The notes under the pieces: generated by a model | Databases searched by the model: none | The model's input: only the letters and a program-made list of their open reading frames with translations | Told to the model about the DNA's origin: nothing | Position numbers and translations under genes: made by a program | Sequence record: OZ346212.1 | From: a phage | DNA length: 64,000 bases | Direction: 5' to 3' (one strand) | Shown: positions 363 to 18,479 of the stretch, piece by piece | Layout of the letters: each line of letters opens with the position of its first letter | Position numbering within the stretch: position 1 is the stretch's first letter

Positions 363-1049
363 ATGGCAGAGATTAAGTCGGATGTTAACCACATCCACAC
401 TCTGCCAGATTTTGTTCAGGGAGGTCTTGACTACCTGCCTGGAGATTTTCTGGCTGAGAAGGTTAATTTAGTCACATTCTTAACCGTATACCTTAAAAGG
501 TTGGAGGATGTTGATAAGATGCTGGTAGGTTTGGCTGAAGGAAGATTGCTTAACAATGCCAGCGGAAGATACCTTGACGAAGTTGGTAATCAACTTGGTA
601 TTCTTAGGAATGGACTTTCAGATGCTGATTTTCGTGCCACACTAATTATTCAGCAGGCCGCAGCATCAAGGGGCGGGACTCGCGAAGATGTCATCTCCAC
701 CTTGCGACAATTGTTCGGAAGAGACAATTTCGATACGTGGAAAGGAGACAACTTCAGGTTTGACATAAATATTAGAAAAACTTGCTTTGACATATTGCAG
801 TCTATCGATCAGATCTTAGATATGCTACCATTGCCTTGTCATTTGCGTCTTACAGAATCGCAAGGGCAAGCTTTTGGTTTTGAAGGGGACTCTACAGCTC
901 TTGGCTTCGGATCAGTATGGGAAGAAAACCAGTTTGGAGTTGGTGGACTGGCTACTTTGCTGTATGTTCCTGACGTAAGACCTGATTGGGACACCACAAC
1001 CATTTATTGTGAAAGTATTACAGTAAACGCAACTAGACAGGAGGGTTAA
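363..1049 (+). CDS. putative baseplate/tail structural protein (228 aa)
   Basis: ORF in structural operon, start 11 nt after previous stop, stop overlaps next start (TAATG). Confidence 0.6.
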   Translation: MAEIKSDVNHIHTLPDFVQGGLDYLPGDFLAEKVNLVTFLTVYLKRLEDVDKMLVGLAEGRLLNNASGRYLDEVGNQLGILRNGLSDADFRATLIIQQAAASRGGTREDVISTLRQLFGRDNFDTWKGDNFRFDINIRKTCFDILQSIDQILDMLPLPCHLRLTESQGQAFGFEGDSTALGFGSVWEENQFGVGGLATLLYVPDVRPDWDTTTIYCESITVNATRQEG

Positions 1050-2767
1050 TGGCAACAGCTGTTTTTAAACCTTACCGTGATTACTCTACAATGGCTGCAC
1101 GGTTTCATTACCGAACAGTTCAGGATACTGCCGTTCCTGGTAGGGATTATGATCATGTTGAGGGCGATGTAACTATCCCAGTTGGGGCAACCAGTATTGA
1201 GATCCCCGTGGAAATTGTTGACAAATTACCCAACAGGTTGCCAAGAAGCTTCTTTATGGAGTTTTCATCAAAATCTCAAGGGGTGATGATTGGAACACAA
1301 AGGGCGAAATGTACAATAGTTTCAGATGAGAATCTTGACAGGATATCTTGGGATACTGTTGAGGAGAGAATGTTTCACCCAAGATATTGGGTTACAACCA
1401 CTCAGCAGACTGAAAGTACCTGTATTGTTGCAGATAACAACTGTTGTATTAACCGTTTAGTGTCAAGAACATATGGAGGTATGGCTGGGTGCATTTGGGA
1501 AACAGTTGACAAGTATGACCATTTCGGTATTGGGTTTGATGATCACTATGAGATGAGAAACACCAAGCTTTGGTTCAGAATGTCAATAACCAACGCCAGC
1601 AACTTCTCCACTCCTGAAAAGATGATTATGACTGTAGACCTTGTTGATGGCACAATCATCTATGTTCCTTTAGCTCAATATGCTGTCAGCATCTCAGAGG
1701 ATAAGAATGTTGCAGAAATTCATATTGATTTTGAGGACTGCGTCGGGATGGACCAGAACAACAACATGATGGGTGTTGATCCTCGGCAGGTGAGAAGGAT
1801 TTTAATACCGCTTATGCCTAAAGACTGGGTAAGTAATAGCACAGACCCGAGAACGGAAAATGTAAAGTGTGAGTTGCGCCTAGATCTGCTTCAGCCAGAC
1901 ACAGGCTGGAAAATGATGCAACTTAACAATATCCAGGTGAGAGAGCACGATGTTGGGATCTGCACCGCATATGACGATATGTGGAACGTGTCTCCTTTAA
2001 GGGTGTTGAACAATATCAAGCGTCTGGGCTATACCGGAACCATAAACCATTATGTTGGTATGAGTCATTATTATGACTACACATGGTCAGGAACCCAATG
2101 GTCTATAAACAGAACAGGAGCGCTAAACGCTGCAGCTTATAAATGGCATGATGATTTTATGTACAATGCCAAACGACATAACTTCGACGTTATGCAATCT
2201 GTAAGTTTTGAGCTTTTCAGCGATGCCTGCCCGTTGGAATGGACCCAAAGAGACTGGAACGATAACTACGCTAAAACAGGGTATACACCTTGTAGCTACC
2301 TCCTGTCTCCAACCATTGAAGAGGGTATGAATTTCCTTACTGCAGTATTTAAGAATTTTGCATCAGCCGCTATGAGAAACAACCTGCCAGTGATTATGCA
2401 GGTTGGTGAACCGTGGTGGTGGTACAATACCGATACTCGTAGACCTTGTATTTATGATTACCCTACAAAACAGGCGTTTTATGATGAGACAGGCGAGTAT
2501 GCATTAGATATTGGGACTATTGACGATCCTAAAACTGGCGGTGTTTACGATAAGTATGTAGCATTTTGTCGTGGTAAGCTTGGCGCTCGTATTGCGGCTA
2601 TTTCAAAGGCAATAAAGGCACACGCTGCATCAGCTCAGATGACAGCTCTGCTGTTTTCCCAACCATTATGGAAACCGAGCTTACGCAAAAGCTTAACCTT
2701 GCTGACCAATATAAAAAGGAAGCAGGTGCTCTTGATTTCTTCTGCACCGAGTGCTACGATTGGGTGA
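1049..2767 (+). CDS. putative tail fiber / baseplate-attached protein (572 aa)
   Basis: Large ORF translationally coupled to upstream gene; N-terminal stretch DYDHVEGDVTIPVGATSIEIPVEIVD resembles a Calx-beta-like beta-sandwich motif; position equivalent to fiber gene after baseplate genes. Confidence 0.65.
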   Translation: MATAVFKPYRDYSTMAARFHYRTVQDTAVPGRDYDHVEGDVTIPVGATSIEIPVEIVDKLPNRLPRSFFMEFSSKSQGVMIGTQRAKCTIVSDENLDRISWDTVEERMFHPRYWVTTTQQTESTCIVADNNCCINRLVSRTYGGMAGCIWETVDKYDHFGIGFDDHYEMRNTKLWFRMSITNASNFSTPEKMIMTVDLVDGTIIYVPLAQYAVSISEDKNVAEIHIDFEDCVGMDQNNNMMGVDPRQVRRILIPLMPKDWVSNSTDPRTENVKCELRLDLLQPDTGWKMMQLNNIQVREHDVGICTAYDDMWNVSPLRVLNNIKRLGYTGTINHYVGMSHYYDYTWSGTQWSINRTGALNAAAYKWHDDFMYNAKRHNFDVMQSVSFELFSDACPLEWTQRDWNDNYAKTGYTPCSYLLSPTIEEGMNFLTAVFKNFASAAMRNNLPVIMQVGEPWWWYNTDTRRPCIYDYPTKQAFYDETGEYALDIGTIDDPKTGGVYDKYVAFCRGKLGARIAAISKAIKAHAASAQMTALLFSQPLWKPSLRKSLTLLTNIKRKQVLLISSAPSATIG

Positions 2768-3120
2768 TGCAGGGAGGTATTGAAAAGGCAAAAGAGTCTG
2801 TAAACATACCTATCGTTAAGTTAGGTTGGCAACCGTCTGAAATACAATACCTTGCAGGGTTCGTTCCTAGTAAAGAGCTTGCTCCGGTATATGGCTACGA
2901 CCCAACCAGGAATTACCAAGAATTTTTATGGAGATGTATCTGCGGAAACATGGCAACCATAGAGTATAGATACCCTGAGGTAAAACAGTATGTGTGGGCA
3001 TACCCGCAAGTAATGTCTGACAGCATCACTGTTACAGCCAGAGATTCTACCGTGCTTCATATGGGGCAGGTTGCTCTGAAAGGGTATGTAGAAGATGTTG
3101 TCCCTCCAGACTTCTCATAA
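2767..3120 (+). CDS. hypothetical structural-module protein (118 aa; alternative start 2668 gives 150 aa)
   Basis: ATG at 2767 overlaps the TGA of upstream gene (TGATG); track ORF 2668..3120 would overlap upstream gene by 100 nt. Confidence 0.5.
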   Translation: MQGGIEKAKESVNIPIVKLGWQPSEIQYLAGFVPSKELAPVYGYDPTRNYQEFLWRCICGNMATIEYRYPEVKQYVWAYPQVMSDSITVTARDSTVLHMGQVALKGYVEDVVPPDFS

Positions 3121-3132
3121 TCAGGAGATAAA

Positions 3133-4173
3133 ATGTCAAAACCTAGTTTTCCATTAGAGATTTGGGCAGAGGAGGATCAGGTTCTGCCTAACACCCACAG
3201 ACAGAACAGGCTACGCCCGATCGATGATTTGTGGAGAAAAGGTTGGGATCTTGGTCAAAAGCCATCCTGTGAAGAACTTAACTATATTTTCAATATGCTC
3301 GGAACTTGGGCAAAATACATTGCTGACGAGCAGATCCCCGCTCAAGAAGGCCGTTATCTGGTACGTGATAATAACTTGAGCGATCTTTTGAACATCCCTG
3401 TTGCCCGTAGAAACCTTGGGATTATCACTAAGGAAGAGGCAGACGCCAGGTATGTAAAAGTTACAGGTGATACAATGACAGGCCCCTTGGGGTTGCAACG
3501 TATCAACTTTAAAGCTGCCGAGACAGATAAGGCTTGGATAGAGACAACTATTGGCCCAGATAAGACAACTCTCGACTTTGGGTTAAGTGATAATACCGGG
3601 TCGTTTGATGATGGTGGTACATCTACAGTGGATGCGTTTCGTTGGAGATTCCAGCCAACTCAGCCGGATATTAATCCAGAGTTCACTTTGATGTACCTTA
3701 ACGCGATCACGGCTAATCGTGCGCTGTTGAAAGTGGTAGGCAATGTTGAAGTTGTCGATAACATGAGGTGCAATAACCTTACTATCAGCAATACAGCAAC
3801 ATTCACCAACTGTAATGTGGCTAGTCAGTTGACGGCTGGGTCAGTATATGTTAATGGTGGTGCAAGTTGTGACAGTATGGTTGTAAGAAGCCAGCACTGT
3901 GTTGTCGGTAACAGAAATGTGGTGCGCTCCGTGAATGGAGTGACGGCTAACGGTAACGGTGATGTAACGATCACTATCCCGCAGACAGGTGTGCAAGACA
4001 TCAGAATCGGTGCAAGACTTGTGGACGGCGTTTCTGAATCTCCAATCCGCAACGGCTACGTTGTCACAGGCTGGCATTTCGGTGACAAAAAAGAGATGCG
4101 TGGTTCAACCTACTGGGCAGGACCCTTACAAAAACTTGTAAATGGTCAATGGATCACTGTTAATTATGCATAG
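3133..4173 (+). CDS. tail fiber / receptor-binding protein, paralog A (346 aa)
   Basis: SD AGGAGA upstream; N-terminus PLEIWAEEDQVL and C-terminus YWAGPLQKLVNGQWITVNYA shared with ORF 5186..6229, central region divergent; GDTMTGPL fiber-like motif. Confidence 0.8.
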   Translation: MSKPSFPLEIWAEEDQVLPNTHRQNRLRPIDDLWRKGWDLGQKPSCEELNYIFNMLGTWAKYIADEQIPAQEGRYLVRDNNLSDLLNIPVARRNLGIITKEEADARYVKVTGDTMTGPLGLQRINFKAAETDKAWIETTIGPDKTTLDFGLSDNTGSFDDGGTSTVDAFRWRFQPTQPDINPEFTLMYLNAITANRALLKVVGNVEVVDNMRCNNLTISNTATFTNCNVASQLTAGSVYVNGGASCDSMVVRSQHCVVGNRNVVRSVNGVTANGNGDVTITIPQTGVQDIRIGARLVDGVSESPIRNGYVVTGWHFGDKKEMRGSTYWAGPLQKLVNGQWITVNYA

Positions 4174-4187
4174 ATCGGAGGGCTAGC

Positions 4188-4772
4188 ATGAAAATACTTC
4201 AAGAGTTTAAACTTTACCAACCAGGATCTGGCGAATACCACTCCAACAAGGAAACCAAGGAGCTGACCCCTCAAGAGGTAGAGGATTACACCGCATACAC
4301 TGGGTATTTTTTACGTAATGATGATGGTGATTGGTATGTGCAGTCACGAACATTACGACAAGAAAATCCAGGGTGTATCTTCCTACTTGTTGACGAGAAG
4401 GGAATTCTTAAGACATCTACAGAAGAACCTGATGCCTTATGGCCTGCTCCAGGTCTTCGTGTGGTTATCGCCAAAAAAGAAGAGGTACCAGAAAACATTA
4501 TGCTTCACCACGACGCTTTGCGTTTAGTTGGTGATGAATTTGTCACAGACAATGAATTCTTTGTTCAACAGGCAGAGGGTGTCATAGAGACAGAACTTGC
4601 TTGGGCTACTGCTAGAATTGGTGCCTATCAAGACATGATTGACCTTGAATATGATCTTACTGATGACCAGAAACGTAACATCAGAGATTTGAAAATGTAC
4701 AGGGTAAAACTTCTTGAAATAGATACATCTAAAGCCCCTGACATTTTCTTCCCAGAGCGACCTACCCTCTAA
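4188..4772 (+). CDS. tail fiber assembly chaperone (Tfa-like, 194 aa)
   Basis: C-terminal segment ...DLTDDQKRNIRDLKMYRVKLLEIDTSKAPDIFFPERP matches the conserved C-terminus of caudoviral tail fiber assembly proteins; lies immediately downstream of a fiber gene. Confidence 0.75.
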   Translation: MKILQEFKLYQPGSGEYHSNKETKELTPQEVEDYTAYTGYFLRNDDGDWYVQSRTLRQENPGCIFLLVDEKGILKTSTEEPDALWPAPGLRVVIAKKEEVPENIMLHHDALRLVGDEFVTDNEFFVQQAEGVIETELAWATARIGAYQDMIDLEYDLTDDQKRNIRDLKMYRVKLLEIDTSKAPDIFFPERPTL

Positions 4773-4783
4773 GAGGAGGTGTT

Positions 4784-5098
4784 GTGGAGTTGGATTTGGC
4801 GGCATTGTACGGTATCTGCATGGGTACCGTTGTCCCGATCTGTGTATGGGCTTTCAACCAGTGGCACACCAAATGGAAAGACATTTCCAAGAGGTTGGAT
4901 GAGCTGGAGAAAGACCTCATCTTAGTGAAAAACAGTATGGTTACAAAAGATAAACTTGATTCCGTTATAGAGACCCGGTTAAGCAAGCTAGAGGCCGATA
5001 TTAACGACCTTAAGCAGGATGTCAGGACAGATGTCTCCGGCATCAGAGCCGATGTACAAAAGATTTTGCACATGCTCGTAGAGCATAGTAAAAGGTAA
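4784..5098 (+). CDS. hypothetical protein with N-terminal hydrophobic segment and coiled-coil (104 aa, GTG start)
   Basis: ORF preceded by GAGGAGG; start codon uncertain (GTG 4784 or TTG 4790). Confidence 0.5.
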   Translation: MELDLAALYGICMGTVVPICVWAFNQWHTKWKDISKRLDELEKDLILVKNSMVTKDKLDSVIETRLSKLEADINDLKQDVRTDVSGIRADVQKILHMLVEHSKR

Positions 5099-5125
5099 AC
5101 AAAGGTCAGAACGGAAAGGACTCCT

Positions 5126-5154
5126 CTTGCATTTTGTTCCCTAAAGTGTTAAAA
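5126..5154 (+). promoter_or_regulatory. sigma70-like promoter (TTGCAT-N17-TAAAAT)
   Basis: -35 TTGCAT at 5126, 17-nt spacer, -10 TAAAAT at 5149, followed by SD and ATG 5186. Confidence 0.5.
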
Positions 5155-5185
5155 TAGTCCTAAGGAATTTTCTCAGGAGAACGTG

Positions 5186-6229
5186 ATGACTAAACCAGTT
5201 ATCCCTCTTGATATTTGGGCCAATCAGGATGTTGTGCTTGAAAATACGGGAGAGTTGAATAAGTCTCAACCAAAAAAAGAAGAGAGATTGAAAGGTTGGG
5301 ATATGACACAAAGAGTGGCATGTGAAGTTGTTAACTTTGAACTTCACATGCTTTCTGCGTGGTTAAAGCATTTAACAGAAGATGTTGTCCCAGGATGGGA
5401 TAATAGATTCTTAAGGGTCACTAATAATCTAGCAGACGTTCCAGACAAAGCTGCTGCACGTCAAGTTCTCAATGTATACTCGCCTGAAGAAATGGACGAT
5501 CTGTATGTTGACAAGTCTGGAGACATAATGACTCAGACTCAAACTTTAGGCCTTCAAAGAATCGAGTTTGCATCTGCGTCAACAGACAATGCGGCAATAT
5601 ATACCACCATAACTCCAGACAAGACGACGATGGACTTCTGGATTATGGACAACATCGGTGGTGCTGACGGCACAGACCTTGATGATCCTTCTCACCAAAT
5701 AGACGGGTTCCGTTGGAGATTTCAACCTTCTGGTGGGCAGCCTGTGTTTTCGGCTATGAAGCTCAATGCTATAACTGCCAACCGTGCAAGACTGGCTATC
5801 CAAGGAAATCTTGAATGCAACGATGCAAAAAGTTCCTCTGCAAATGCCAATGCGGTCACGATACCAAGAGCCACTGTTAACGGACAACAATCCTGCGGAA
5901 GCGCTCAAATAGGTGGAAGAGTTGATTGTAACGATGAAACCGTTAGAGGCCAATATGCAACCGTTGGTGGAAGAAACGTGGTCCGCAGGGTAAACGGTAA
6001 CAGCGCAGACGGTAGTGGTAACCTTACTGTCCCTATGCCCAGTAGAGGGGTTGACGATGTAAGGATAGCGAACCGTTTCAAAACCACCTACAGAGAGTCA
6101 AGGGTCTACCCTGGACATGTGATGTGCTCTGGTAACTACGCTTATAAACACCCTTATCAAGGTGATTACTGGACAGGTGCTATCCAAAAACTTGTAAACG
6201 GTCAATGGATCACTATATCTTATGCTTAA
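5186..6229 (+). CDS. tail fiber / receptor-binding protein, paralog B (347 aa)
   Basis: ATG 5186 preferred over GTG 5183 by alignment with paralog A (MTKPVIPLDIW vs MSKPSFPLEIW); conserved C-terminus YWTGAIQKLVNGQWITISYA. Confidence 0.8.
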   Translation: MTKPVIPLDIWANQDVVLENTGELNKSQPKKEERLKGWDMTQRVACEVVNFELHMLSAWLKHLTEDVVPGWDNRFLRVTNNLADVPDKAAARQVLNVYSPEEMDDLYVDKSGDIMTQTQTLGLQRIEFASASTDNAAIYTTITPDKTTMDFWIMDNIGGADGTDLDDPSHQIDGFRWRFQPSGGQPVFSAMKLNAITANRARLAIQGNLECNDAKSSSANANAVTIPRATVNGQQSCGSAQIGGRVDCNDETVRGQYATVGGRNVVRRVNGNSADGSGNLTVPMPSRGVDDVRIANRFKTTYRESRVYPGHVMCSGNYAYKHPYQGDYWTGAIQKLVNGQWITISYA

Positions 6230-6240
6230 AAAGAGGGTAA

Positions 6241-6507
6241 ATGAAACTAACTCAGTTTTTATGGGGACTGGTTGCGGAATCTGATGACCCTACGAAAGTA
6301 TCCCAATCTAAGCTATGGTCGAACATAGGCATGGTGGTGATGACTGGGGTGTTTATTCATATGGGGTATAATGATACGCTTCCTGAATGGTATGCGTGGA
6401 TATATGCACCTTCAGTAGCCTGCCCCCAGCTTATTAGCAAATTCATCTCGCTCCGGTGGGGTTGCCAGCACCCTGACCACGTTAAAAACGAAGAGCAAAA
6501 AGCTTAA
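6241..6507 (+). CDS. hypothetical small protein with hydrophobic segments (88 aa), accessory gene downstream of fiber paralog B
   Basis: ORF with SD AAGAGGG upstream, 11 nt after fiber gene stop. Confidence 0.55.
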   Translation: MKLTQFLWGLVAESDDPTKVSQSKLWSNIGMVVMTGVFIHMGYNDTLPEWYAWIYAPSVACPQLISKFISLRWGCQHPDHVKNEEQKA

Positions 6508-6516
6508 GGAGAAATC

Positions 6517-8262
6517 ATGGCGCAAGACATGACAAGCTTCGAGCAGGCGGTAGATCAAGTAATTGTTGATTCTGAACGTTTGCACTTGATTGTCAACGGT
6601 AACGCTGTGGATGAAGTTGTCGTAGAGGATGGGACCACTATCCCTACGGTACGAAAAGCCATGCTTGACACCCTTTATTTTAAAACGCCACCAATCCCTT
6701 GGGCGTATGGTGCATCCACAACAGTTTTTAACCAGTTGTATGAGTTTAAAGGGGATACAGGCACTCAGTGGTGGTACGCCCCAGCAGCATCAAAATCTAA
6801 CCCGGTTAGAATGCCAGCAGATCCTTCACAATCTCCAAACTGGAGATTATACACCGACTCTGCAGTAATGGCAAAATACTACGCAAAACTTAACAGCCCA
6901 AGGTTCGAAGGTGACCCGCGAGTACCTACACCTCCAATGGACGATAAGTCAGAGTCCATAGCAAACACAGAGTTTGTTGTTGACTATGTTGATAGCATAT
7001 TTAAAGCCATGGAGGGGATGAAAGTTACTGTAGGATCTTTGGTGGTAAAAGGTCTTACAGAACTCGCTAACACTATAGTTGGTGGCACCCTTACCTTACA
7101 TGGACCTGTTAATGGGGCAGATTCTACTGCACGCTTTAGGAATCTAATCCTCACGGCAAATACTTCTACACTTACTTTTGCGTGGAGCGATCCTAAGCAT
7201 GCAGACTGGAGAAGTACAGAGCTGCAACCTCATGAAGTGTCCACCCACAGGGTTATAGCTGACACTATAACTTCTGGGAAACCAGTGGCTAATAATAACG
7301 ATGTGCATTTTGATGGTCTGGGTAATAACTTTTTTGACTACGTGTACATTCGTGGTAATGCCATGAAGGCAGCAACCGAACCGACATTGCAGGTAGATGG
7401 GACCACCAGGGTTAAGAACCTTGAGGTGACAGGTACCGTTACAGGGATAACATACTCTGTCGATGGCACCATGATCTACCCTAGCTATATTGAAAGCACT
7501 GGTGATGCATTGATAAATGGCGATTTGGAGGTTGGCGGGTCTGTAGTTATTCGAGGTACGGCCTCTATCCAAAACATAGCTCTGAATACCTTAAGAGTCA
7601 ATGAGCGTGCAACTTTTGAAGGAGAAGGGCTTACAGCCAACAAAGGTGTAATTACCGAGCTGACAACAACCACTTTAACTGCAACAGCTGCAAACTCTGA
7701 AAACTGCAACGTTACCCGCAACTTGCAGGTAAATGGAGATGTCAGTTTAAACGCAGCAGGGCCTGGCACCACCTCTGTTCACAACCTTGAAATATCCGGC
7801 ACGGTGACTGGGTGGTTGCCTGACTTCTCTAATGTCACCTTTGTCTGTAATGGCATTAACTCCAGTGGCAAGATAACCACCTCTCAAGAAATTGAGGCGG
7901 GTAAAACCATTACTGCCCCTACTTTCCACGCAGGAAAGGTAGATTTTGATTTAGAGGAGGTTGACGCGTCCAGTGGGACATGGACACCTAACGGGCAGGC
8001 CAGTATGTATGTTGTTCACGCGAAAGGGGATTTTACAATAGGACAGTGGCCTGGGACATCAGCGGAAGATAAACCTTATCCATTCACTGCGGTTATCTAT
8101 GTAATTCAGGATGCTGTAGGTCACAACGTGACTTTGCACGATAAGTATGCTATCCTGTCGGCAACACCTGTTATTAACAACAAGGCTAACAGTGTTACCT
8201 TGCTGCAATTAACGTATTGTGGTGTTGGTGATATCGTAGACGTAGTAATTGCACAACGTTAA
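6517..8262 (+). CDS. putative tail fiber protein (581 aa)
   Basis: SD AAGGAGA upstream; large ORF in structural operon, Thr/Gly/Asn/Val-rich composition typical of fiber shafts. Confidence 0.7.
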   Translation: MAQDMTSFEQAVDQVIVDSERLHLIVNGNAVDEVVVEDGTTIPTVRKAMLDTLYFKTPPIPWAYGASTTVFNQLYEFKGDTGTQWWYAPAASKSNPVRMPADPSQSPNWRLYTDSAVMAKYYAKLNSPRFEGDPRVPTPPMDDKSESIANTEFVVDYVDSIFKAMEGMKVTVGSLVVKGLTELANTIVGGTLTLHGPVNGADSTARFRNLILTANTSTLTFAWSDPKHADWRSTELQPHEVSTHRVIADTITSGKPVANNNDVHFDGLGNNFFDYVYIRGNAMKAATEPTLQVDGTTRVKNLEVTGTVTGITYSVDGTMIYPSYIESTGDALINGDLEVGGSVVIRGTASIQNIALNTLRVNERATFEGEGLTANKGVITELTTTTLTATAANSENCNVTRNLQVNGDVSLNAAGPGTTSVHNLEISGTVTGWLPDFSNVTFVCNGINSSGKITTSQEIEAGKTITAPTFHAGKVDFDLEEVDASSGTWTPNGQASMYVVHAKGDFTIGQWPGTSAEDKPYPFTAVIYVIQDAVGHNVTLHDKYAILSATPVINNKANSVTLLQLTYCGVGDIVDVVIAQR

Positions 8263-8271
8263 TATATCTAA

Positions 8272-8298
8272 CCGCTCCTGACGGGGCGGTTTTCTTAT
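8272..8298 (+). terminator. rho-independent terminator
   Basis: Hairpin CCGCTCC-tgac-GGGGCGG followed by TTTTCTTAT. Confidence 0.6.
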
Positions 8299-8310
8299 CT
8301 GGAGAACACA

Positions 8311-11300
8311 ATGCTTCCAATCCCTTTGCTAAAACTTGGTCGTCATTTCCTCGATAAGAGGGGTGGAATTAAGGAACTTGCTGTTCTGTCATACCCAATA
8401 GACAACAGTGATGGTACAAGCAACACAGTATCCTATGTAAATAGCTTAGCTATACTTTTTGATGATGGTCAGCTTAATATTACTGGCTATAACAAGTTCG
8501 GAGAGTGCCGCACTGGGGATCGTAGCCCTATAAACTATCCGAGCGAAACAGCCTGGAATGTTGATCATGTGTGGAGAGCAGACCGCGCGTTTGTGATCCG
8601 GACTTTTGATAACCAGTTTTTCTACATCGGCTGCACTGCAGGTCTTATCGGATCCACTGCGGCAGGCGGTAATGATGTTTGCGTAAACGAGTGGACACCA
8701 CTCCCAGAGCAGATTGTTAAAGGATTGCACCTTGACACCCACCCAGAACGCCTTATTGAGGTGATGGGCGGTATTAACAACACTGTCTGGGTTATTGCAG
8801 AGGCAGAAGGTACTGGCATACTTAACCTGTATGGATCTGGTAACAACACCTACGGATCTTTGCATGTAGATAAAAATCAGCATGCAACCCCTGTAAAGAT
8901 TGGTGAGACATCGGAAAATCCTGAAACAGGCCCTTGGAAAAACCCAAGCATCAACTGTGAGGTGCATGACAACTCTGTTATTTTCGGTGGTCCTAGGGGT
9001 TTCTGGATTGCTGGATACGACTTTCTGAGAAATAACAGTAGAAACGACCTTGTTTGGCCTCCTGTGCAGATTACTCGTAACGATTTGAGGGGCATTCCTG
9101 CAGATGAGGAGTGGAAAGGGTTTATGTGTGGTCCTAACGGGGCAGTAATTGCTACACAGAGGATGCATAGACCCGATGACCAGCAGCTTGTTAACGTATT
9201 TTATGGTCAAAACATTTGGGGAGATGATACATGGCGGGAACTGAATATCACCTACACCCATGAGGTAATGATGGCTCGTGGGTACGGCACAAGTGGCATT
9301 TTCTTCAATAATGGCACTAAGCAGTATCGTGGGTTCTCTCGCAACTTATGTAATGATATTGGTGCACAATCTGCAAACAATAGTCCTAGGGCCGATTTTA
9401 TCCACTATCAAGCTCTTGCTACAGCTAAATATGTTGAGCAACGCCTGCCAGTCAGCTGGACAGAGAGTGTTTATTTCCAAGGCATCCACAGAGAAGGTTT
9501 CTTAGGGACCTTTACTGTTGTTAATGGTAAACTTTGGTGGTCAGGTATCCCAAGGGGAAGTTTTACAGGCTCTAATAACCTGTTTGGCGGCAGACTTAAT
9601 AGTCAGGGGTTCACAGAGGTTCCTGAGAATTGGTATAAAAATGTCCCAGTAGACAGTTGGGGCGTTGATGATATTTTCGACGTTAATGGTGTTAGCAGTG
9701 TTAGCAATATCTACATTGGTGACACGGTCAAGATGAAATTGAAGCCTCAGCCAGAGGGAGCTACGTTCATCATTGACAAGATTGAACTGGTGAATGCTGC
9801 AGGTACGGTTGTTACAGATGCAAATTACCAATTCTCCACCAACTGGAACCACGGCGGGGCCAACGAAGTTGTTGTTACCCAGTATAACAGAAATGTTAAC
9901 AGACGTGGCCTGTACTCTGTAAAAATAACCTATCATGACAAGCATGGCACAGGCAGAACTCACACGACAAGGACTTTGAACTGGAACACCATAGTTCCTG
10001 CGTATCCGTCCAACGGCAAGTGGCATACCGTTGGTAGAAACAAGCAGTTCCATGTTAACGATACTGTATACTTTGGGCTGAATGGGACCCAGCCTGCAGT
10101 AGAAGGGGATACATCGTATATGGTCAGACTCCACAGAATGGATGCTGGATCAGTCACTTATGATGTGACCCAAGAGATCTACGATCAAAGACGCGCCACG
10201 TATGACAATATTGTGAAAACACAAGCCTTGTGGGAGTTCAATCCTAATGGCAAGGGTGGTAAAATGTTGCAGGTTAATGAGCAGAACGGAACGTCGTTGA
10301 CTGTTCACGAACACCCAGACCCTTGGCCTGATCCTGGAAAACCTCACCCGGGAGCTCGTACACTGAAAATTGTCAGCCATGATGCAGGATATTTCGGAAT
10401 ACGCTGGGAAGCTACAGTAAGATATGTCGACGGGACAACAAACAACATAGGGATTACACTTGGCGGCACTAGTGAAGATAGCTCGCTGAAAATTGCCTAC
10501 ACGCCCAGAGGTATCTCTATTGATAATATGGATGTTGTTCGCAATGGTTACGGCGATGTGAATGTCAAAGTTACTCTTGGCGAACATCTTGGTGGGGAAA
10601 GGATCATCATGTATGCCTTTGATCATGATCCACGCACCAATGGAACTTATGCAAATCAGGCATGGAGTTACCTGATAAATGCACCTGAGCCGAATACTAA
10701 AGAGTTCTACTATGGCATGAAGCGAGATGTGTGCAAGAAAACAGGAACACATGACTGGATTGCTATCTGCGTTAAAGATGAGCGCACAGCTTGGGATGAG
10801 CCTGTTAACAGATGGTTCATAGGTATTCCTACCAGAAGTGATAAGTATGTCGCAGAATATATTGTATGCATGGGCGGTACCAACCTAAACATGTGTTGGA
10901 ACGAAGATGTAAACAAATACTCTGATTATGACTATATGAGGGATTACTCTTGTAATTTGTGGTTTAACCAAACTACAGGTTACCCTCCAAGACAGGCGAG
11001 AGTAAACCCTGCAATCTTCACAGACACGCAGGTTTTCTTGACAAAACAGGCCAACGAGGTTCAGACCTTCAAGAATAAATACGATCCTAACAAGTGGTTC
11101 TACAACTGTTACGGCGCATTTTTCTGGGGACCTGGTGAGTTACCTGGTGGTGGATCTTGCTTGAATGAGGCAACTTACGCAAGTGACTACATCATGGGGC
11201 AGGTCAAGAAGTATAAGATAATCCCCGGTCCTGAGACTTTGGGCAATGCCGTTGACCCTTATATCATCATGACTGCACTGAGATCAAACATGGATGGGAC

Positions 11301-13947
11301 ATCCATGTCCATGCAAATTCCGGTAACAAACGGATACAAACGTGTTGTGATGATCATTAAGTGCGACCTGATAGGTAAACAAGTTCTTGCAGAAAACGGG
11401 ACATCCACACATCCTTTTGAGATCGCTCTGCACTATCAGTTTGCTGACTCACCTTTTGCAGGGGATAAGAGAATATCTGATACAGACGCACAGCGTTGTA
11501 AGAAAGTATTGTTGGGTGCAGGTTGGTGGTGGTATGAGTTTGATTTAACAGACAAATTCACCGACACGTCTAAAGTTGTAACAGGACTTCGTCTAGACCT
11601 TGGCGAGAACATGCACAAAGCTGTTTGTGATGGCACCTATGGTGACCCTACAATATACCTAAAATATGTTTCTTTTGAGCATCCGGAAGATGTTGTCTAC
11701 GGTCCAAAACTGAGATTGTTTGGCAGCTGGATTGCAAAAGATAGGGTAGGCATGGGTAAGAAGGTAAGAGGGTTCTTGGTTGATGCAGGAACAGAAGACA
11801 TGCTGGTTAATGCAGTATGGCCTGAATTACCTGGGACTCAGTGGGACAACTCAGCCAAATCTATAAACTGGTTTAACATTCATAGGGCCATGTGGACCAC
11901 TAACTGCTACTTGTGGAGAGAGCTTAACGATCAGGCCTTTGGATTCAGCGAGGGTAGAAGGATGGCGATCATTTGCTGGACAACACTGCAAAGATGTTAT
12001 GACCATGACTATGAGATTGGAGGCAGGGCATGGAAAAATATCAGGGATAGAATCATAACCAATTTTGCAGACGACAACGGTGGTGGAGCACATAACTTTG
12101 GCACAAGCCGACTCATCCATTTGAACGGATCCTCAGCCTACAAGAAAGAAGGTTACTCTGGGTCTATGATCGAGCGGGGTCTGGTGAAAGATGCTCGCGT
12201 ATTGATGGGCCAGCAACTTGCTGCCGCAGTAGGTCCCAGCGCAGTGCAGTCGGTTAAACCAGCGTGGTTCGATATTCCATTGTGGTCACCCGGAACACCG
12301 GGAACTGCTGCAATCAACCCTACCACTGGGGATCTGGAAATCTCCTGGGAAGACCTGAAGCAGGTCGGTGGTTGGGACAAAACAGGGTATCAGGTTCAAT
12401 GGTGGAGGGCTGACGGATCTTTAGCCGCTGATGAGTTTGTTAAGGACAATTTCTACACTATGTCCTCTGCAAAAGCACAGCAATTATTTGGTCAGGCAAC
12501 TCCGTCAACGATCACCATGTCTATGTGCTGTAAAGACAACAGGACTGGAGCTTTGGGGCCAAGGGTTGCTAAAGTTTTCTCAGGTATTAAATGGAATCTA
12601 CCTGTCCAAAGTATTTCATGGAAGCAAATAGGTGATAACAAGCTGCTGGTTACCCCTGCCTGTCAGTTCAACGCAACTCTTAACGTTGATCCTGCTGTTG
12701 CGGCAAACTCAGCTAAAGCTTCTGACTTCTCTGTGTCTAACACTGCTATGGCAGATGTGAGGAAGATTGACACGCTGAACGCCAGAATTACCTGTAAAAA
12801 CACTTATGGCACATTCCAAATCATCAACAACTTCACAGATGCTGATTCTAAGGTAGTGAGGACAGCAAGCCAGACTCTGAGTTTAGGAACTCTGGCCTAT
12901 GCGGCCCTGATCACCGAACAGTCGGCAACACTCCAAGGAGGTGGTGTAGGCAAGTCCATTACAACACCTGTGTGGAAGCCAAATGAGTGGGTTGTGTTTG
13001 ATTTGACTGTGGACTTCTCCAGCGATAATAACTGGACATGGGTAAGGAATTGTTTGTCACAGTTGATGGGCGGTCCAAGCTCCGTTAGTGATAGTCACGA
13101 CTCTACTGACCCGAGTGTGTTCCAGGTAGGTAAAACTCACCCAGAGACTGGAGAAACGTTGCCTGACAGGAAGTATGCTTTGGTTTGCATCTCTTACGGG
13201 AAGGCAGATGTCGCCTTCTCAGGGACACACACTTATAACGGAACCTACAACTTCTCAAGGAAGTATAGTCTCAAAGCAGGGAACATTATAGACGAGGTTG
13301 GTGCGCTGTATAATCCGGGCAACGGCATAGGGATTGTTGGTGGTAAACTGCAGATGCAGGAACCTTCTATTACCCCTTCCAACGTATCCGGGATTAGAAA
13401 GACTTGGGAAAGTAGTAATACCAACATTGCAACAGTGGATGCCACCACAGGACTGGTAACATTTAAAGCTACTGGGAATGTCACCATAAAGTTTGTAGTT
13501 ACTGATGATGTAGGGCGCAAAACGTCTTCAACATCTTTTACTGTCAAACAGATGGCACCACAGTGGAGAATGTGGATAGGTACAGCAACAAACGGGGCAT
13601 ACCCTAATCCGTCAGGTACTTCTGGTATGAAGACTTTCTCTACAAGCAAACCGATGGAGTACGGCAGCGGTCCTAAGGTAGGGCAGATGGTGTACTTTGG
13701 TGCGTATATTCCTGAAATTATAGGGCTTCCTAGAAGTCAGCTTCAGTTGCTGTTTGGGGCTGGTGTTGACGATCTTGCCACTTTCGGGTATAGCGACAAC
13801 ATCGAGGCTGCAAGGAGTTCAGGATGGGTAGGGTTCAGAATGGAGTCTGGAAAGGAAGGCAGGATTCTAGGGACAGCCTCTATAGGTGTTATGTTCCCTG
13901 GTGACCAGCAGTATCGTCTAGAAGCCTACGCAACCTTTTCTCGTTAA
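8311..13947 (+). CDS. giant multi-domain structural protein (1878 aa), putative tail fiber/adhesin with RCC1-like, FN3-like and Big_2-like segments
   Basis: Single uninterrupted ORF; N-terminal repeats (GYNKFGECRTGD, YGSGNNTYGSLHVD) resemble RCC1 propeller blades; near C-terminus ...IRKTWESSNTNIATVDATTGLVTFKATGNVTIKFVVTD matches the bacterial Ig-like group 2 pattern. Confidence 0.8.
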   Translation: MLPIPLLKLGRHFLDKRGGIKELAVLSYPIDNSDGTSNTVSYVNSLAILFDDGQLNITGYNKFGECRTGDRSPINYPSETAWNVDHVWRADRAFVIRTFDNQFFYIGCTAGLIGSTAAGGNDVCVNEWTPLPEQIVKGLHLDTHPERLIEVMGGINNTVWVIAEAEGTGILNLYGSGNNTYGSLHVDKNQHATPVKIGETSENPETGPWKNPSINCEVHDNSVIFGGPRGFWIAGYDFLRNNSRNDLVWPPVQITRNDLRGIPADEEWKGFMCGPNGAVIATQRMHRPDDQQLVNVFYGQNIWGDDTWRELNITYTHEVMMARGYGTSGIFFNNGTKQYRGFSRNLCNDIGAQSANNSPRADFIHYQALATAKYVEQRLPVSWTESVYFQGIHREGFLGTFTVVNGKLWWSGIPRGSFTGSNNLFGGRLNSQGFTEVPENWYKNVPVDSWGVDDIFDVNGVSSVSNIYIGDTVKMKLKPQPEGATFIIDKIELVNAAGTVVTDANYQFSTNWNHGGANEVVVTQYNRNVNRRGLYSVKITYHDKHGTGRTHTTRTLNWNTIVPAYPSNGKWHTVGRNKQFHVNDTVYFGLNGTQPAVEGDTSYMVRLHRMDAGSVTYDVTQEIYDQRRATYDNIVKTQALWEFNPNGKGGKMLQVNEQNGTSLTVHEHPDPWPDPGKPHPGARTLKIVSHDAGYFGIRWEATVRYVDGTTNNIGITLGGTSEDSSLKIAYTPRGISIDNMDVVRNGYGDVNVKVTLGEHLGGERIIMYAFDHDPRTNGTYANQAWSYLINAPEPNTKEFYYGMKRDVCKKTGTHDWIAICVKDERTAWDEPVNRWFIGIPTRSDKYVAEYIVCMGGTNLNMCWNEDVNKYSDYDYMRDYSCNLWFNQTTGYPPRQARVNPAIFTDTQVFLTKQANEVQTFKNKYDPNKWFYNCYGAFFWGPGELPGGGSCLNEATYASDYIMGQVKKYKIIPGPETLGNAVDPYIIMTALRSNMDGTSMSMQIPVTNGYKRVVMIIKCDLIGKQVLAENGTSTHPFEIALHYQFADSPFAGDKRISDTDAQRCKKVLLGAGWWWYEFDLTDKFTDTSKVVTGLRLDLGENMHKAVCDGTYGDPTIYLKYVSFEHPEDVVYGPKLRLFGSWIAKDRVGMGKKVRGFLVDAGTEDMLVNAVWPELPGTQWDNSAKSINWFNIHRAMWTTNCYLWRELNDQAFGFSEGRRMAIICWTTLQRCYDHDYEIGGRAWKNIRDRIITNFADDNGGGAHNFGTSRLIHLNGSSAYKKEGYSGSMIERGLVKDARVLMGQQLAAAVGPSAVQSVKPAWFDIPLWSPGTPGTAAINPTTGDLEISWEDLKQVGGWDKTGYQVQWWRADGSLAADEFVKDNFYTMSSAKAQQLFGQATPSTITMSMCCKDNRTGALGPRVAKVFSGIKWNLPVQSISWKQIGDNKLLVTPACQFNATLNVDPAVAANSAKASDFSVSNTAMADVRKIDTLNARITCKNTYGTFQIINNFTDADSKVVRTASQTLSLGTLAYAALITEQSATLQGGGVGKSITTPVWKPNEWVVFDLTVDFSSDNNWTWVRNCLSQLMGGPSSVSDSHDSTDPSVFQVGKTHPETGETLPDRKYALVCISYGKADVAFSGTHTYNGTYNFSRKYSLKAGNIIDEVGALYNPGNGIGIVGGKLQMQEPSITPSNVSGIRKTWESSNTNIATVDATTGLVTFKATGNVTIKFVVTDDVGRKTSSTSFTVKQMAPQWRMWIGTATNGAYPNPSGTSGMKTFSTSKPMEYGSGPKVGQMVYFGAYIPEIIGLPRSQLQLLFGAGVDDLATFGYSDNIEAARSSGWVGFRMESGKEGRILGTASIGVMFPGDQQYRLEAYATFSR

Positions 13948-13960
13948 CAAGGGGATAAAT

Positions 13961-13990
13961 AAAAAGGGGCCAAACGGCCCCTTTCTTTTT
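13961..13990. terminator. bidirectional rho-independent terminator between convergent operons
   Basis: AAAAA-GGGGCC-aaac-GGCCCC-TTTCTTTTT; A-tract upstream and T-tract downstream. Confidence 0.75.
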
Positions 13991-13994
13991 ATAG

Positions 13995-14195
13995 TTAGTA
14001 ATACTCCCAACATGCCCCATCTTCAGACGGCTTGACGCGCTTACCTTTATGGTCAACATAGGTATAGCCACAACCTTCACAAATAACAGGTGCTGCATAG
14101 CCTTCCTTCCACTGATCCTCAGTGATCAGACCTTCCAAATCTTTGCAGTCAAAGCCAAACAACTCTTCAGAGCAATCTTTACAAAAATCAGCCAT
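13995..14195 (-). CDS. small Cys-rich zinc-ribbon-like protein (66 aa)
   Basis: ORF with two CxxC pairs (CKDC...CEGC), SD GAGGA upstream. Confidence 0.55.
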   Translation of the reverse strand: MADFCKDCSEELFGFDCKDLEGLITEDQWKEGYAAPVICEGCGYTYVDHKGKRVKPSEDGACWEYY

Positions 14196-17689: not shown

Positions 17690-17953
17690 TTAGAAACCCT
17701 CTAAAAAGCTCTTGTAGAAAATAATTTCAGTATCTACACCAGTCACGATCTTATCGTTCCTGATTTCATCTGTAAGGTAGGTGTCAAAACGCAGAACCTG
17801 TGTGGTGTTGTCACACATCCACTCAGCTGTGACCATTGCGAAAATCTTAGCATCTTCATTATCTGGTGTGAATGTTACCACCTCACCGCACTTAAACTTT
17901 TCGATAGGCTGAGTGTTAGCTTTCGGTTCTGCGATAGTGATTTTTGTGGTCAT
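17690..17953 (-). CDS. small protein, member 3 of tandem paralog array (87 aa)
   Basis: SD GGAGGAG; motif F.CGEVV...IVTGVDTEIIFY parallels the neighbours. Confidence 0.65.
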   Translation of the reverse strand: MTTKITIAEPKANTQPIEKFKCGEVVTFTPDNEDAKIFAMVTAEWMCDNTTQVLRFDTYLTDEIRNDKIVTGVDTEIIFYKSFLEGF

Positions 17954-18216
17954 TATTCTCCTCCTTCTTTTGAATAGCTTGTCTCTCCAAGGATGGTAAT
18001 TTTGGTGTCAAGCTCTGTAACTTTCATGTTTGGCGGCAGATCGTACAACTCATTATTTTCTAAATCGAACCCCCACACACAATGTTCTCCTGTTTTGACA
18101 ATCATAACTATGTTTTGAATGCCGTCTCCGTCGCAACTTACCACAGTCCCACACGGAAAGCTGTCTGCACGCTTTTTGTTCTTCACCTTAGAATTGAATA
18201 CAATGCTGGTAGCCAT
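17953..18216 (-). CDS. small protein, member 2 of tandem paralog array (87 aa)
   Basis: SD GGAGGA; CGTVVSCDGDG...VTELDTKITILGE aligns with 18216..18479 product. Confidence 0.65.
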   Translation of the reverse strand: MATSIVFNSKVKNKKRADSFPCGTVVSCDGDGIQNIVMIVKTGEHCVWGFDLENNELYDLPPNMKVTELDTKITILGETSYSKEGGE

Positions 18217-18479
18217 TATTGTTCCTCCACCATAACTTCGCCAATAATTTCTATGCAGGCATCCATTTCTGTAACAACCAAACTGTGAGGTAGTTCTACA
18301 AACACCTTTCTGAACAGGTCAAATACCCCAACATATATGTTTGCAGGATGTGATTTTACAACAAGTGCTGTATTCACATCCCCAAGTTCATCAACAAACA
18401 TCACCACAGTGCCTGGAGCTACTGAGGACAGATACTTCTTAGTTTTACGGTTTGATGCAAATTTTAACTCTGTTGCCAT
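18216..18479 (-). CDS. small protein, member 1 of tandem paralog array (87 aa)
   Basis: SD GAGGAGG; PGTVVMFVDELGD...VTEMDACIEIIGE. Confidence 0.65.
   Translation of the reverse strand: MATELKFASNRKTKKYLSSVAPGTVVMFVDELGDVNTALVVKSHPANIYVGVFDLFRKVFVELPHSLVVTEMDACIEIIGEVMVEEQ

Follow-up and report, generated by a model that had tools for sequence, protein, structure and literature searches.

In rV5-like Escherichia coli myophages, the lateral tail-fibre locus ends with a large gene encoding gp27, which was described in phage rV5 as a conserved hypothetical protein of 1878 amino acids (aa; 208,334 Da) with a Big_2 domain and was detected at a low level by virion mass spectrometry (3 peptides and 9 spectra, covering 3.1% of the sequence; PMC3606486 supplement). 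Previously, Maffei et al. identified its counterpart as the last large gene of the locus, reported its moderate allelic variation and stated that the assignment of the locus genes to particular fibres is unclear (PMC8594841). The deposited names of the orthologues are “Ig-like domain-containing protein” and “structural protein with Ig domain” (Ig, immunoglobulin), while the BASEL annotation reads “lateral tail fiber protein with intimin domain”; our literature search yielded no work on gp27 function, mutants or structure. Here we analyse the copy of this gene located at 8311..13947 of a 64,000-nucleotide stretch of phage DNA (sequence record OZ346212.1, hereafter the window).

By megablast, the window belongs to the genus Vequintavirus (rV5-like E. 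coli myophages), and its gp27 gene is 99.9% identical to that of naswa, 99.7% to that of Murica and 99.4% to that of CarlMeissner/Bas48; at least 80% of the gene is covered in 108 phage records. The protein matches phrog_15684 from end to end (E = 0, 4497.9 bits, positions 1-1878 of 1878) and its gene occupies the same genomic position, which places it in the rV5 gp27 orthologous group. It does not differ materially from rV5 gp27 and CarlMeissner bas48_0041 (YP_002003529-type, phrog_15684, 1878 aa, 93-99.9% nucleotide identity, same position and flanks). The gene is not new: it equals rV5 gp27 and is already catalogued in more than 100 genomes, though functionally uncharacterised. The published annotation that we found is limited to “Big_2 / Ig-like / intimin domain” and does not cover the RCC1-like N-terminus, the insert resembling a carbohydrate-binding module (CBM) or the orphan helical module described below. 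About 15 GenBank records labelled “Campylobacter phage” (MG0656xx) match the full length of the gp27 gene with at least 93% identity; these are probably E. coli phages that were mislabelled or present as contaminants, and not phages of Campylobacter.

The gp27 family itself is small. Only 15 full-length relatives (40-96% identity, about 1700-1980 aa, on phage-sized contigs) were retrieved from a 5.8-billion-protein index, in which queries with the full-length protein, the N-terminus and the middle module returned the gp27 family only, plus one phAPEC8-like fragment. The gene order is the same in a relative at 40% identity. Comparable genes are found in Phapecoctavirus and Seunavirus, where phAPEC8 gp180 (phrog_11922 “tail protein”, 891 aa) and PVP-SE1 gp40 (“tail protein”, 604 aa) are the syntenic, terminator-bounded last genes of the fibre module. 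Like gp27, they carry a homologous RCC1-like N-terminus followed by Big_2 domains; unlike gp27, they are 2-3 times shorter, lack the helical and CBM-like module and the fibronectin type III (FN3)-like segment, and have different C-termini. BLASTP of the C-terminal third of gp27 against gp180 revealed Big_2-level similarity only, and therefore these two proteins share just the N-terminus and generic Ig domains.

RCC1-like (IPR009091) proteins were also found by mass spectrometry in the virions of Septuagintavirus W70 (gp237-239) and GAP32, many copies of them exist in 121Q, and a role in DNA condensation was tentatively proposed there (PMC11370258, PMC5259590). These enterobacterial myophages share with gp27 a virion-associated RCC1-like domain and are set beside it by this domain label. 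For gp27, a surface role seems more plausible than DNA condensation because of its position in the tail module and its fusion to Ig-like domains. Since an RCC1-like domain is combined with Big_2 in the syntenic genes of two other genera, and RCC1-like virion proteins occur in W70, GAP32 and 121Q, the domain mix is normal for this phage group, and not unusual as was supposed in the initial annotation.

We suggest, with moderate confidence based on sequence comparison and predicted structures, that gp27 is an accessory adhesin of the tail-fibre apparatus, built of modules like “beads on a string”, and not a canonical trimeric fibre. The initial reading, a host-surface adhesin or enzymatic fibre, is a plausible proposal. 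The accessory adhesin is preferred because the recognisable domains are of the monomeric type and no trimerisation device was seen: neither Pfam, PHROGs nor the AlphaFold2 (AF2) models of gp27 revealed a coiled coil, triple beta-helix, beta-helix tailspike or S74 chaperone domain. The gene and the proposed domains, all on the + strand of the window, are arranged as follows.

8311..13947, + strand: gp27 coding sequence, 1878 aa from ATG to TAA; rV5 gp27 orthologue, phrog_15684
8311..9660 (aa 1-450), + strand: RCC1-like beta-propeller region, proposed virion anchor (conservation, hidden Markov model (HMM) matches, Foldseek)
9661..10815 (aa 451-835), + strand: three to four predicted Ig-like/PKD-like beta-sandwiches (AF2, weak HMM matches)
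10816..11136 (aa 836-942), + strand: orphan Cys/Trp-rich helical domain, first half (AF2 helices, predicted local distance difference test score (pLDDT) < 40)
11137..11679 (aa 943-1123), + strand: predicted beta-jelly-roll insertion, CBM-like (galactose-binding-domain-like fold), clade-variable
11680..12285 (aa 1124-1325), + strand: orphan helical domain, second half, with invariant EDMLV, SINWFNxHRAMW, ICW..L.RCY, EIGG and EGYxGSMIE.G
12286..12600 (aa 1326-1430), + strand: FN3-like beta-sandwich (marginal fn3 match, AF2)
12601..13320 (aa 1431-1670), + strand: most variable region, then Ig-like sandwiches; candidate specificity determinant (conservation, AF2)
13321..13560 (aa 1671-1750), + strand: Big_2 bacterial Ig-like domain (Pfam match at aa 1682-1738)
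13561..13944 (aa 1751-1878), + strand: C-terminal beta-rich domain, common to phrog_215 (E = 1e-18, phrog_215 positions 300-458)

The BASEL annotation implies that gp27 is a canonical homotrimeric lateral tail fibre, one of three primary receptor-binding fibres. Its gene indeed lies inside the lateral tail-fibre locus, varies between alleles like other large fibre genes and encodes a conserved N-terminus followed by variable distal parts, as in fibres: conservation peaks at aa 1-450 (about 75% identity across the family), variability peaks at aa 950-1000 (within the jelly roll), 1430-1600 and 1750-1800, and within Vequintavirus the C-terminus occurs as two alleles of about 97% and about 80% identity. 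However, besides the lack of any trimerisation module in the searches named above, the propeller, Ig-like, FN3-like, Big_2 and CBM-like domains are all typical of monomeric chains. Moreover, electron cryo-microscopy (cryo-EM) of two Vequintavirinae resolved 3 of the 9 annotated fibres, and the fibre classes in its main text include no gp27-like protein. We regard the trimeric fibre as unlikely.

The N-terminus of gp27 starts with an invariant MxPIP and contains seven G-rich RCC1-type motifs (read by eye), which resemble G-x-N-x-x-G-x-x-G repeats, start near aa 57, 105, 171, 232, 296, 339 and 408, and are spaced by 43-69 aa. The peptides on which the RCC1 likeness was initially based, GYNKFGECRTGD at aa 59-70 and YGSGNNTYGSLHVD at aa 174-187, are present. 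Pfam gave no RCC1 match for the whole protein at E <= 1, and PF00415 (RCC1) did not match gp27; when aa 1-460 were analysed alone, PF25390 (WD40_RLD/RCC1-like; E = 2e-4, 21.2 bits versus a cut-off of 150) and phrog_4219 “regulator of chromosome condensation” (E = 4e-7) both matched aa 42-199, and a weak RCC1-like match likewise occurs in 12 of the 16 family members. The orthologues are clearer, since both pass the PF00415 cut-off of 21.7 bits (phAPEC8 gp180 with 24.0 bits, PVP-SE1 gp40 with 36.1 bits) and match PF25390 at E of about 1e-10 to 1e-11 and phrog_4219 at E = 4e-34. The gp27 N-terminus is 41% identical to that of gp180 over about 200 aa (E = 1e-23) and is alignable to about aa 440.

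Structure prediction points in the same direction. The AF2 model of aa 1-840 has a mean pLDDT of 55.5 and is reasonable for aa 20-200 and 400-560; at aa 200-400 pLDDT is below 50, so that the model is trustworthy for no more than about three blades (aa 40-200). The top Foldseek matches of this model in PDB are nearly all RCC1-like domains (E = 3e-7 to 1e-5), the best being HERC1 RLD3 (E = 3.4e-7), followed by RCC2, UVR8, WBSCR16, RPGR, HERC2 and RCC1, with TM-scores of only 0.3-0.4. We therefore accept the gp27 N-terminus as an RCC1-like propeller at the superfamily level; the initial annotation thus stands as to the likeness, which phrog_4219, the orthologues and Foldseek support, while gp27 itself stays under the Pfam threshold. 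Repeat motifs, weak HMM matches and Foldseek relate this region to the seven-bladed RCC1/BLIP-II propellers (RCC1, HERC2 RLDs, UVR8, RPGR; PF00415/PF25390). Unlike RCC1 proteins, gp27 has no nucleotide-exchange context, and its propeller is most likely a protein–protein docking platform on the virion.

Downstream of the propeller, aa 451-835 are modelled as all-beta (pLDDT 75-88 at aa 450-560 and 60-70 at aa 735-840), with a weak PKD_4 match (E = 0.05) and Bact_surface_Ig-like matches in the homologues. The FN3-like segment, which the initial annotation had placed in the middle of the protein, lies about 70% along it, with the peptide PGTPGTAAINPTTGDLEISWEDL at approximately aa 1327-1349. The best Pfam match of aa 1311-1430 is fn3 (PF00041) with E = 0.041 and 14.5 bits versus a cut-off of 25, covering aa 1334-1375 (profile positions 8-47) below the gathering threshold; in the relative P0002 the match has E = 0.25. 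AF2 predicts here a seven-strand sandwich with pLDDT of 55-77, and we count aa 1326-1430 as FN3-like solely at the level of the predicted fold. In the following region, aa 1451-1550 are only 12-36% identical between clades; pLDDT is low at aa 1430-1530 and 66-89 at aa 1530-1670.

The Big_2 domain near the C-terminus, proposed initially, was confirmed: PF02368 scores 33.7 bits with the whole protein and 38.5 bits with the fragment, the gathering cut-off being 22.8, and pLDDT reaches 80-92. Structural matches were obtained to the Ig-like/Big_2 proteins Big_2-CBM56, N4 gp65, LigB, Sap, SbsC, the lambda gpV Ig domain and intimin. Surface Ig-like sandwiches of this kind occur in the accessory adhesins of phages (T4 Hoc, the C-terminal Ig domain of lambda gpV, the N4 gp65 sheath, T5 pb6), and Big_2 sandwiches in the bacterial adhesins intimin, invasin and LigB, the proposed common function being weak glycan adherence. 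In contrast to these Ig-like adhesins, gp27 is much larger and adds the predicted propeller and the orphan helical/CBM-like module.

The likeness to Hoc raises the question of whether gp27 may decorate the capsid or neck, with a C-terminal anchor and the propeller as an exposed ligand-binding end. The C-terminal 290 aa (Ig-like, Big_2 and beta-rich end) resemble phrog_215 (E = 9e-46), a “head and packaging” family named “structural protein with Ig domain”, a PDB profile search gave a weak match to a phage decoration protein (E = 0.33), and Ig-like arrays are typical of Hoc-type proteins. However, the gene forms part of the tail-fibre operon in all relatives, well away from the head genes, and the C-terminus of phAPEC8 gp180 resembles siphovirus tail-tip and minor tail proteins. 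In the orthologues the N-terminus is retained and the C-terminus replaced, whereas a C-terminal anchor would lead one to expect the reverse; the anchor of gp27 is probably N-terminal, while that of Hoc is C-terminal. A decoration fibre is thus very improbable.

Between the Ig-like segments lies the least familiar part of the protein. In the initial annotation the middle 1000 residues were considered free of recognisable motifs; this part splits into aa 451-835, with their predicted Ig-like sandwiches, and aa 836-1325, for which no relatives were detected outside the family. According to the AF2 model, aa 836-1325 (about 490 aa) are a family-restricted orphan module in which a CBM-like jelly roll interrupts a helical domain. 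The jelly roll (about aa 943-1123) is well predicted (pLDDT 60-86) and its predicted fold resembles solved CBMs; a second group of structural matches, with 126-175 residues aligned, was attributed to this insert by size. The flanking helical stretches have pLDDT below 40, and neither they nor aa 200-400 are interpretable at the values obtained. Pfam searches with aa 943-1123 alone and with the excised helical domain gave nothing at E <= 10, and no CAZy/Pfam CBM family claims the insert by sequence. An exhaustive HMMER search of 1.84 billion representatives with the aa 836-1300 profile found only the gp27 family's own representative (P0013) and one fragment, and sequence profile searches of PDB with the full-length protein, the middle module and the middle module minus the jelly roll gave chance antibody and beta-lactamase matches (E >= 0.03).

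The conserved polar motifs EDMLV, SINWFNxHRAMW, EIGG and EGYxGSMIE hint at an active or binding site in the orphan module. We take its NxH..W motif to be reminiscent of the alginate-lyase motif NNHSYW. One can suggest that aa 836-1325 constitute a novel enzyme that degrades or modifies glycans and carries a CBM of its own, so that gp27 would be an enzymatic, depolymerase-type fibre. In favour of this are the dense invariant polar and aromatic motifs (EDMLV, NWFNxHRAMW, EIGG, EGYxGSMIE), kept in 40%-identical relatives, the CBM-like jelly roll inserted in the orphan domain, and the glycosidase or deacetylase domains encoded by neighbouring fibre genes. Yet no similarity links the module to Pfam, to PDB chains or to proteins of other families, also after removal of the insert; the helical parts, with pLDDT below 40, provide no evidence of a fold, including that of an (alpha/alpha)-toroid lyase; and conservation was judged on only 16 fairly close sequences (40-96% identity), which cannot single out catalytic residues and give no evidence of an active or binding site. 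We give the enzymatic explanation a low probability.

The attachment of the putative adhesin to the virion is suggested by comparison with the gene upstream. This gene, gp28 (6517..8262), encodes a homologue of the phiTE baseplate fibre chain 9cuy_g (PDB 9CUY chain g; E = 3e-77), and its similarity to phAPEC8 gp179 is limited to the last approximately 105 aa (51% identity, E = 5e-27). The C-terminal part concerned is as follows.

7924..8259 (last approximately 112 aa), + strand: gp28 C-terminal head, hypothetical docking partner of the gp27 propeller (reciprocal conservation)

This type of head occurs in 386 phage records, including phi92 gp151, PVP-SE1 gp41, GAP31 and Rak2-like jumbo phages; in the latter, among them GAP32 and 121Q, the protein carrying it is annotated “long tail fiber proximal subunit”. 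The gp28 shaft is swapped between genera while the head is kept. Reciprocally, aa 1-450 are the only part that gp27 shares with the syntenic last genes phAPEC8 gp180 and PVP-SE1 gp40, whose C-termini differ. The N-terminal propeller is likely the virion anchor because it is the most conserved part of gp27 and the sole one common to these orthologues. Conservation of the upstream C-terminus and the downstream N-terminus, with the rest swapped, is the pattern expected of an interface between adjacent gene products, and the gp27 propeller possibly docks on the gp28 head. In the RBPseg cryo-EM analysis, the C-terminal head of the TC8 fibre touches density with no assigned protein; we infer that TC8 is gp28 and that this density is gp27.

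These considerations can be extended to a bolder proposal, which we hold to be rather doubtful: gp27 would fill the place of the missing “tail tip adhesin” in Vequintavirinae as a single-chain distal subunit of about 208 kDa whose propeller sits on the trimeric gp28 head. Such a trimer-to-monomer joint would be previously undescribed and common to Phapecoctavirus, Seunavirus and perhaps the Rak2-like jumbo phages, and the orphan helical and CBM-like module would be a surface-glycan-active enzyme or lectin belonging to a new fold family.

The arrangement of the gene in the window agrees with the initial description of a single 1878-aa open reading frame (ORF) closing the structural operon between terminators. 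The ORF is uninterrupted (+ strand, ATG at 8311, TAA ending at 13947), with the signals listed below.

8270..8291, + strand: upstream terminator-like hairpin, AACCGCTCC-TGAC-GGGGCGGTT, then TTCTTATCT
8301..8304, + strand: Shine-Dalgarno GGAG, 6 nucleotides (nt) 5' of the gp27 ATG
13963..13984, no strand assigned: bidirectional terminator-like hairpin, AAAGGGGCC-AAAC-GGCCCCTTT, with an A-run before and a T-run after

The upstream hairpin, situated between the gp28 stop codon (8262) and the gp27 ATG, has a 9-bp stem (6 GC) and a T-rich tail, and a terminator is annotated at the equivalent place in the phAPEC8 record. The downstream one, also with a 9-bp stem, is stronger and separates gp27 from the convergent early genes on the - strand. 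From 363 to 13947 the + strand carries all the genes, which form part of the tail-fibre module; beyond, the genes lie on the - strand, and the GC skew changes sign at about 14000. Thus, the lateral tail-fibre locus ends with gp27, which has a terminator-like hairpin on either side. The upstream hairpin is just 19 nt from the ATG, so that transcription probably reaches gp27 by read-through, and its dosage would therefore be lower.

Low dosage might also mean that gp27 is a largely dispensable passenger, present in a low amount or loosely associated with the virion and irrelevant to infection in most conditions. Just 3 peptides were recovered in rV5, the upstream terminator would reduce expression, and several genomes carry a two-ORF annotation, explained in naswa by a deletion of 1 nt. 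Also, infection of K-12 by Vequintavirus is accounted for by an NGR/ECA-type glycan receptor (ECA, enterobacterial common antigen), recognised via the deacetylase fibre, and by the lipopolysaccharide core, both bound by fibre proteins other than gp27. However, the 5.6-kb ORF has stayed intact and its N-terminus strongly conserved, both in more than 100 genomes and in relatives with as little as 40% identity; this argues for purifying selection in nature, while the ORF splits sit in homopolymers and may be sequencing errors. A dispensable passenger is very unlikely in our opinion. Since K-12 infection is already accounted for, gp27 is more likely an auxiliary or host-range factor than an essential receptor-binding protein.

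As an accessory adhesin, gp27 may operate as follows. The RCC1-like propeller with its MxPIP N-terminus would anchor the protein to the virion, possibly on the gp28 head, and the hairpin 5' of the start codon would attenuate transcription, resulting in few copies per virion. The CBM-like insert, aa 1430-1600 and the C-terminal Big_2 module may establish weak, multivalent, reversible contacts with surface glycans, for which O-antigen, capsule or other polysaccharides are candidates. These contacts would help initial adsorption and the tuning of host range.

Several observations weigh against this interpretation. Both the placement of gp27 in the virion and its binding are predictions; absence from virions, which would have refuted the initial annotation, is not what was found, since the rV5 orthologue was detected in them (the 3 peptides and 9 spectra cited above), but with 3.1% coverage this support is thin. 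The gp27 N-terminus does not belong formally to the Pfam RCC1 family, its score being far under the cut-off, and self-comparison by hhalign revealed no significant internal repeat (one sub-optimal alignment, E = 0.13). AF2 modelling of both halves used alignments of 16-18 sequences and gave a mean pLDDT of 55, and therefore the domain boundaries and the propeller past aa 200 are tentative. The phrog_215 family has a head rather than a tail category, as noted above. The docking idea is weakened by phi92, which keeps the gp28-type head (gp151) and has downstream of it gp152 with Big_2 domains only and no propeller, and the equation of TC8 with gp28 is our own. Finally, the naswa, ime, Alma and phita32 records split the gp27 orthologue into two annotated ORFs, given in the last three as two “hypothetical proteins”. 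In naswa (8501-14136), the only case examined, the split is due to a G-run shortened by 1 nt (GGGG to GGG) at codon 762, about 10594 in the window. The splits may represent recurrent homopolymer sequencing errors, or gp27 may be dispensable in the laboratory or on K-12.

Other genes of the window deserve mention. Two paralogous short tail fibres of about 347 aa (rV5 gp33 and gp30) are encoded at 3133..4173 and 5183..6229, and between them, at 4188..4772, lies a gene for a lambda gpK/Tfa-type fibre assembly chaperone (Caudo_TAP, E = 9e-12), in agreement with the published description. At 1049..3120, a 690-aa fibre gene of the relatives is broken into the ORFs 1049..2767 and 2668..3120 by the loss of one nucleotide from a T-run (TTTTT to TTTT) at about 2650-2654, inside the TIM barrel. 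Its intact version, CarlMeissner bas48_0034 / naswa_62, combines the Pfam domains NCTSP_N (N4 gp65-like) and TIM-barrel_NCTSP and is a putative NGR/ECA-binding deacetylase fibre; the split is either a homopolymer sequencing error or a real knockout of the primary receptor-binding protein. On the - strand, at 17690..18479, three consecutive 87-aa ORFs (17690-17953, 17953-18216 and 18216-18479), hypothetical proteins in the relatives, look as if a small early gene had been triplicated in tandem.

The presented analysis adds to an already catalogued gene a domain map, an orphan middle module with a CBM-like insert and a docking hypothesis. The module of about 490 aa is a reasonable target for structure determination. 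The map of the largest protein of the locus, together with the proposed interface between the gp28 head and the gp27 propeller, which is based on reciprocal conservation and unassigned cryo-EM density, offers constructs for binding and deletion experiments and for cryo-EM fitting. The rV5-like phages are among the coliphages with the broadest host range and are candidates for therapy and biocontrol.

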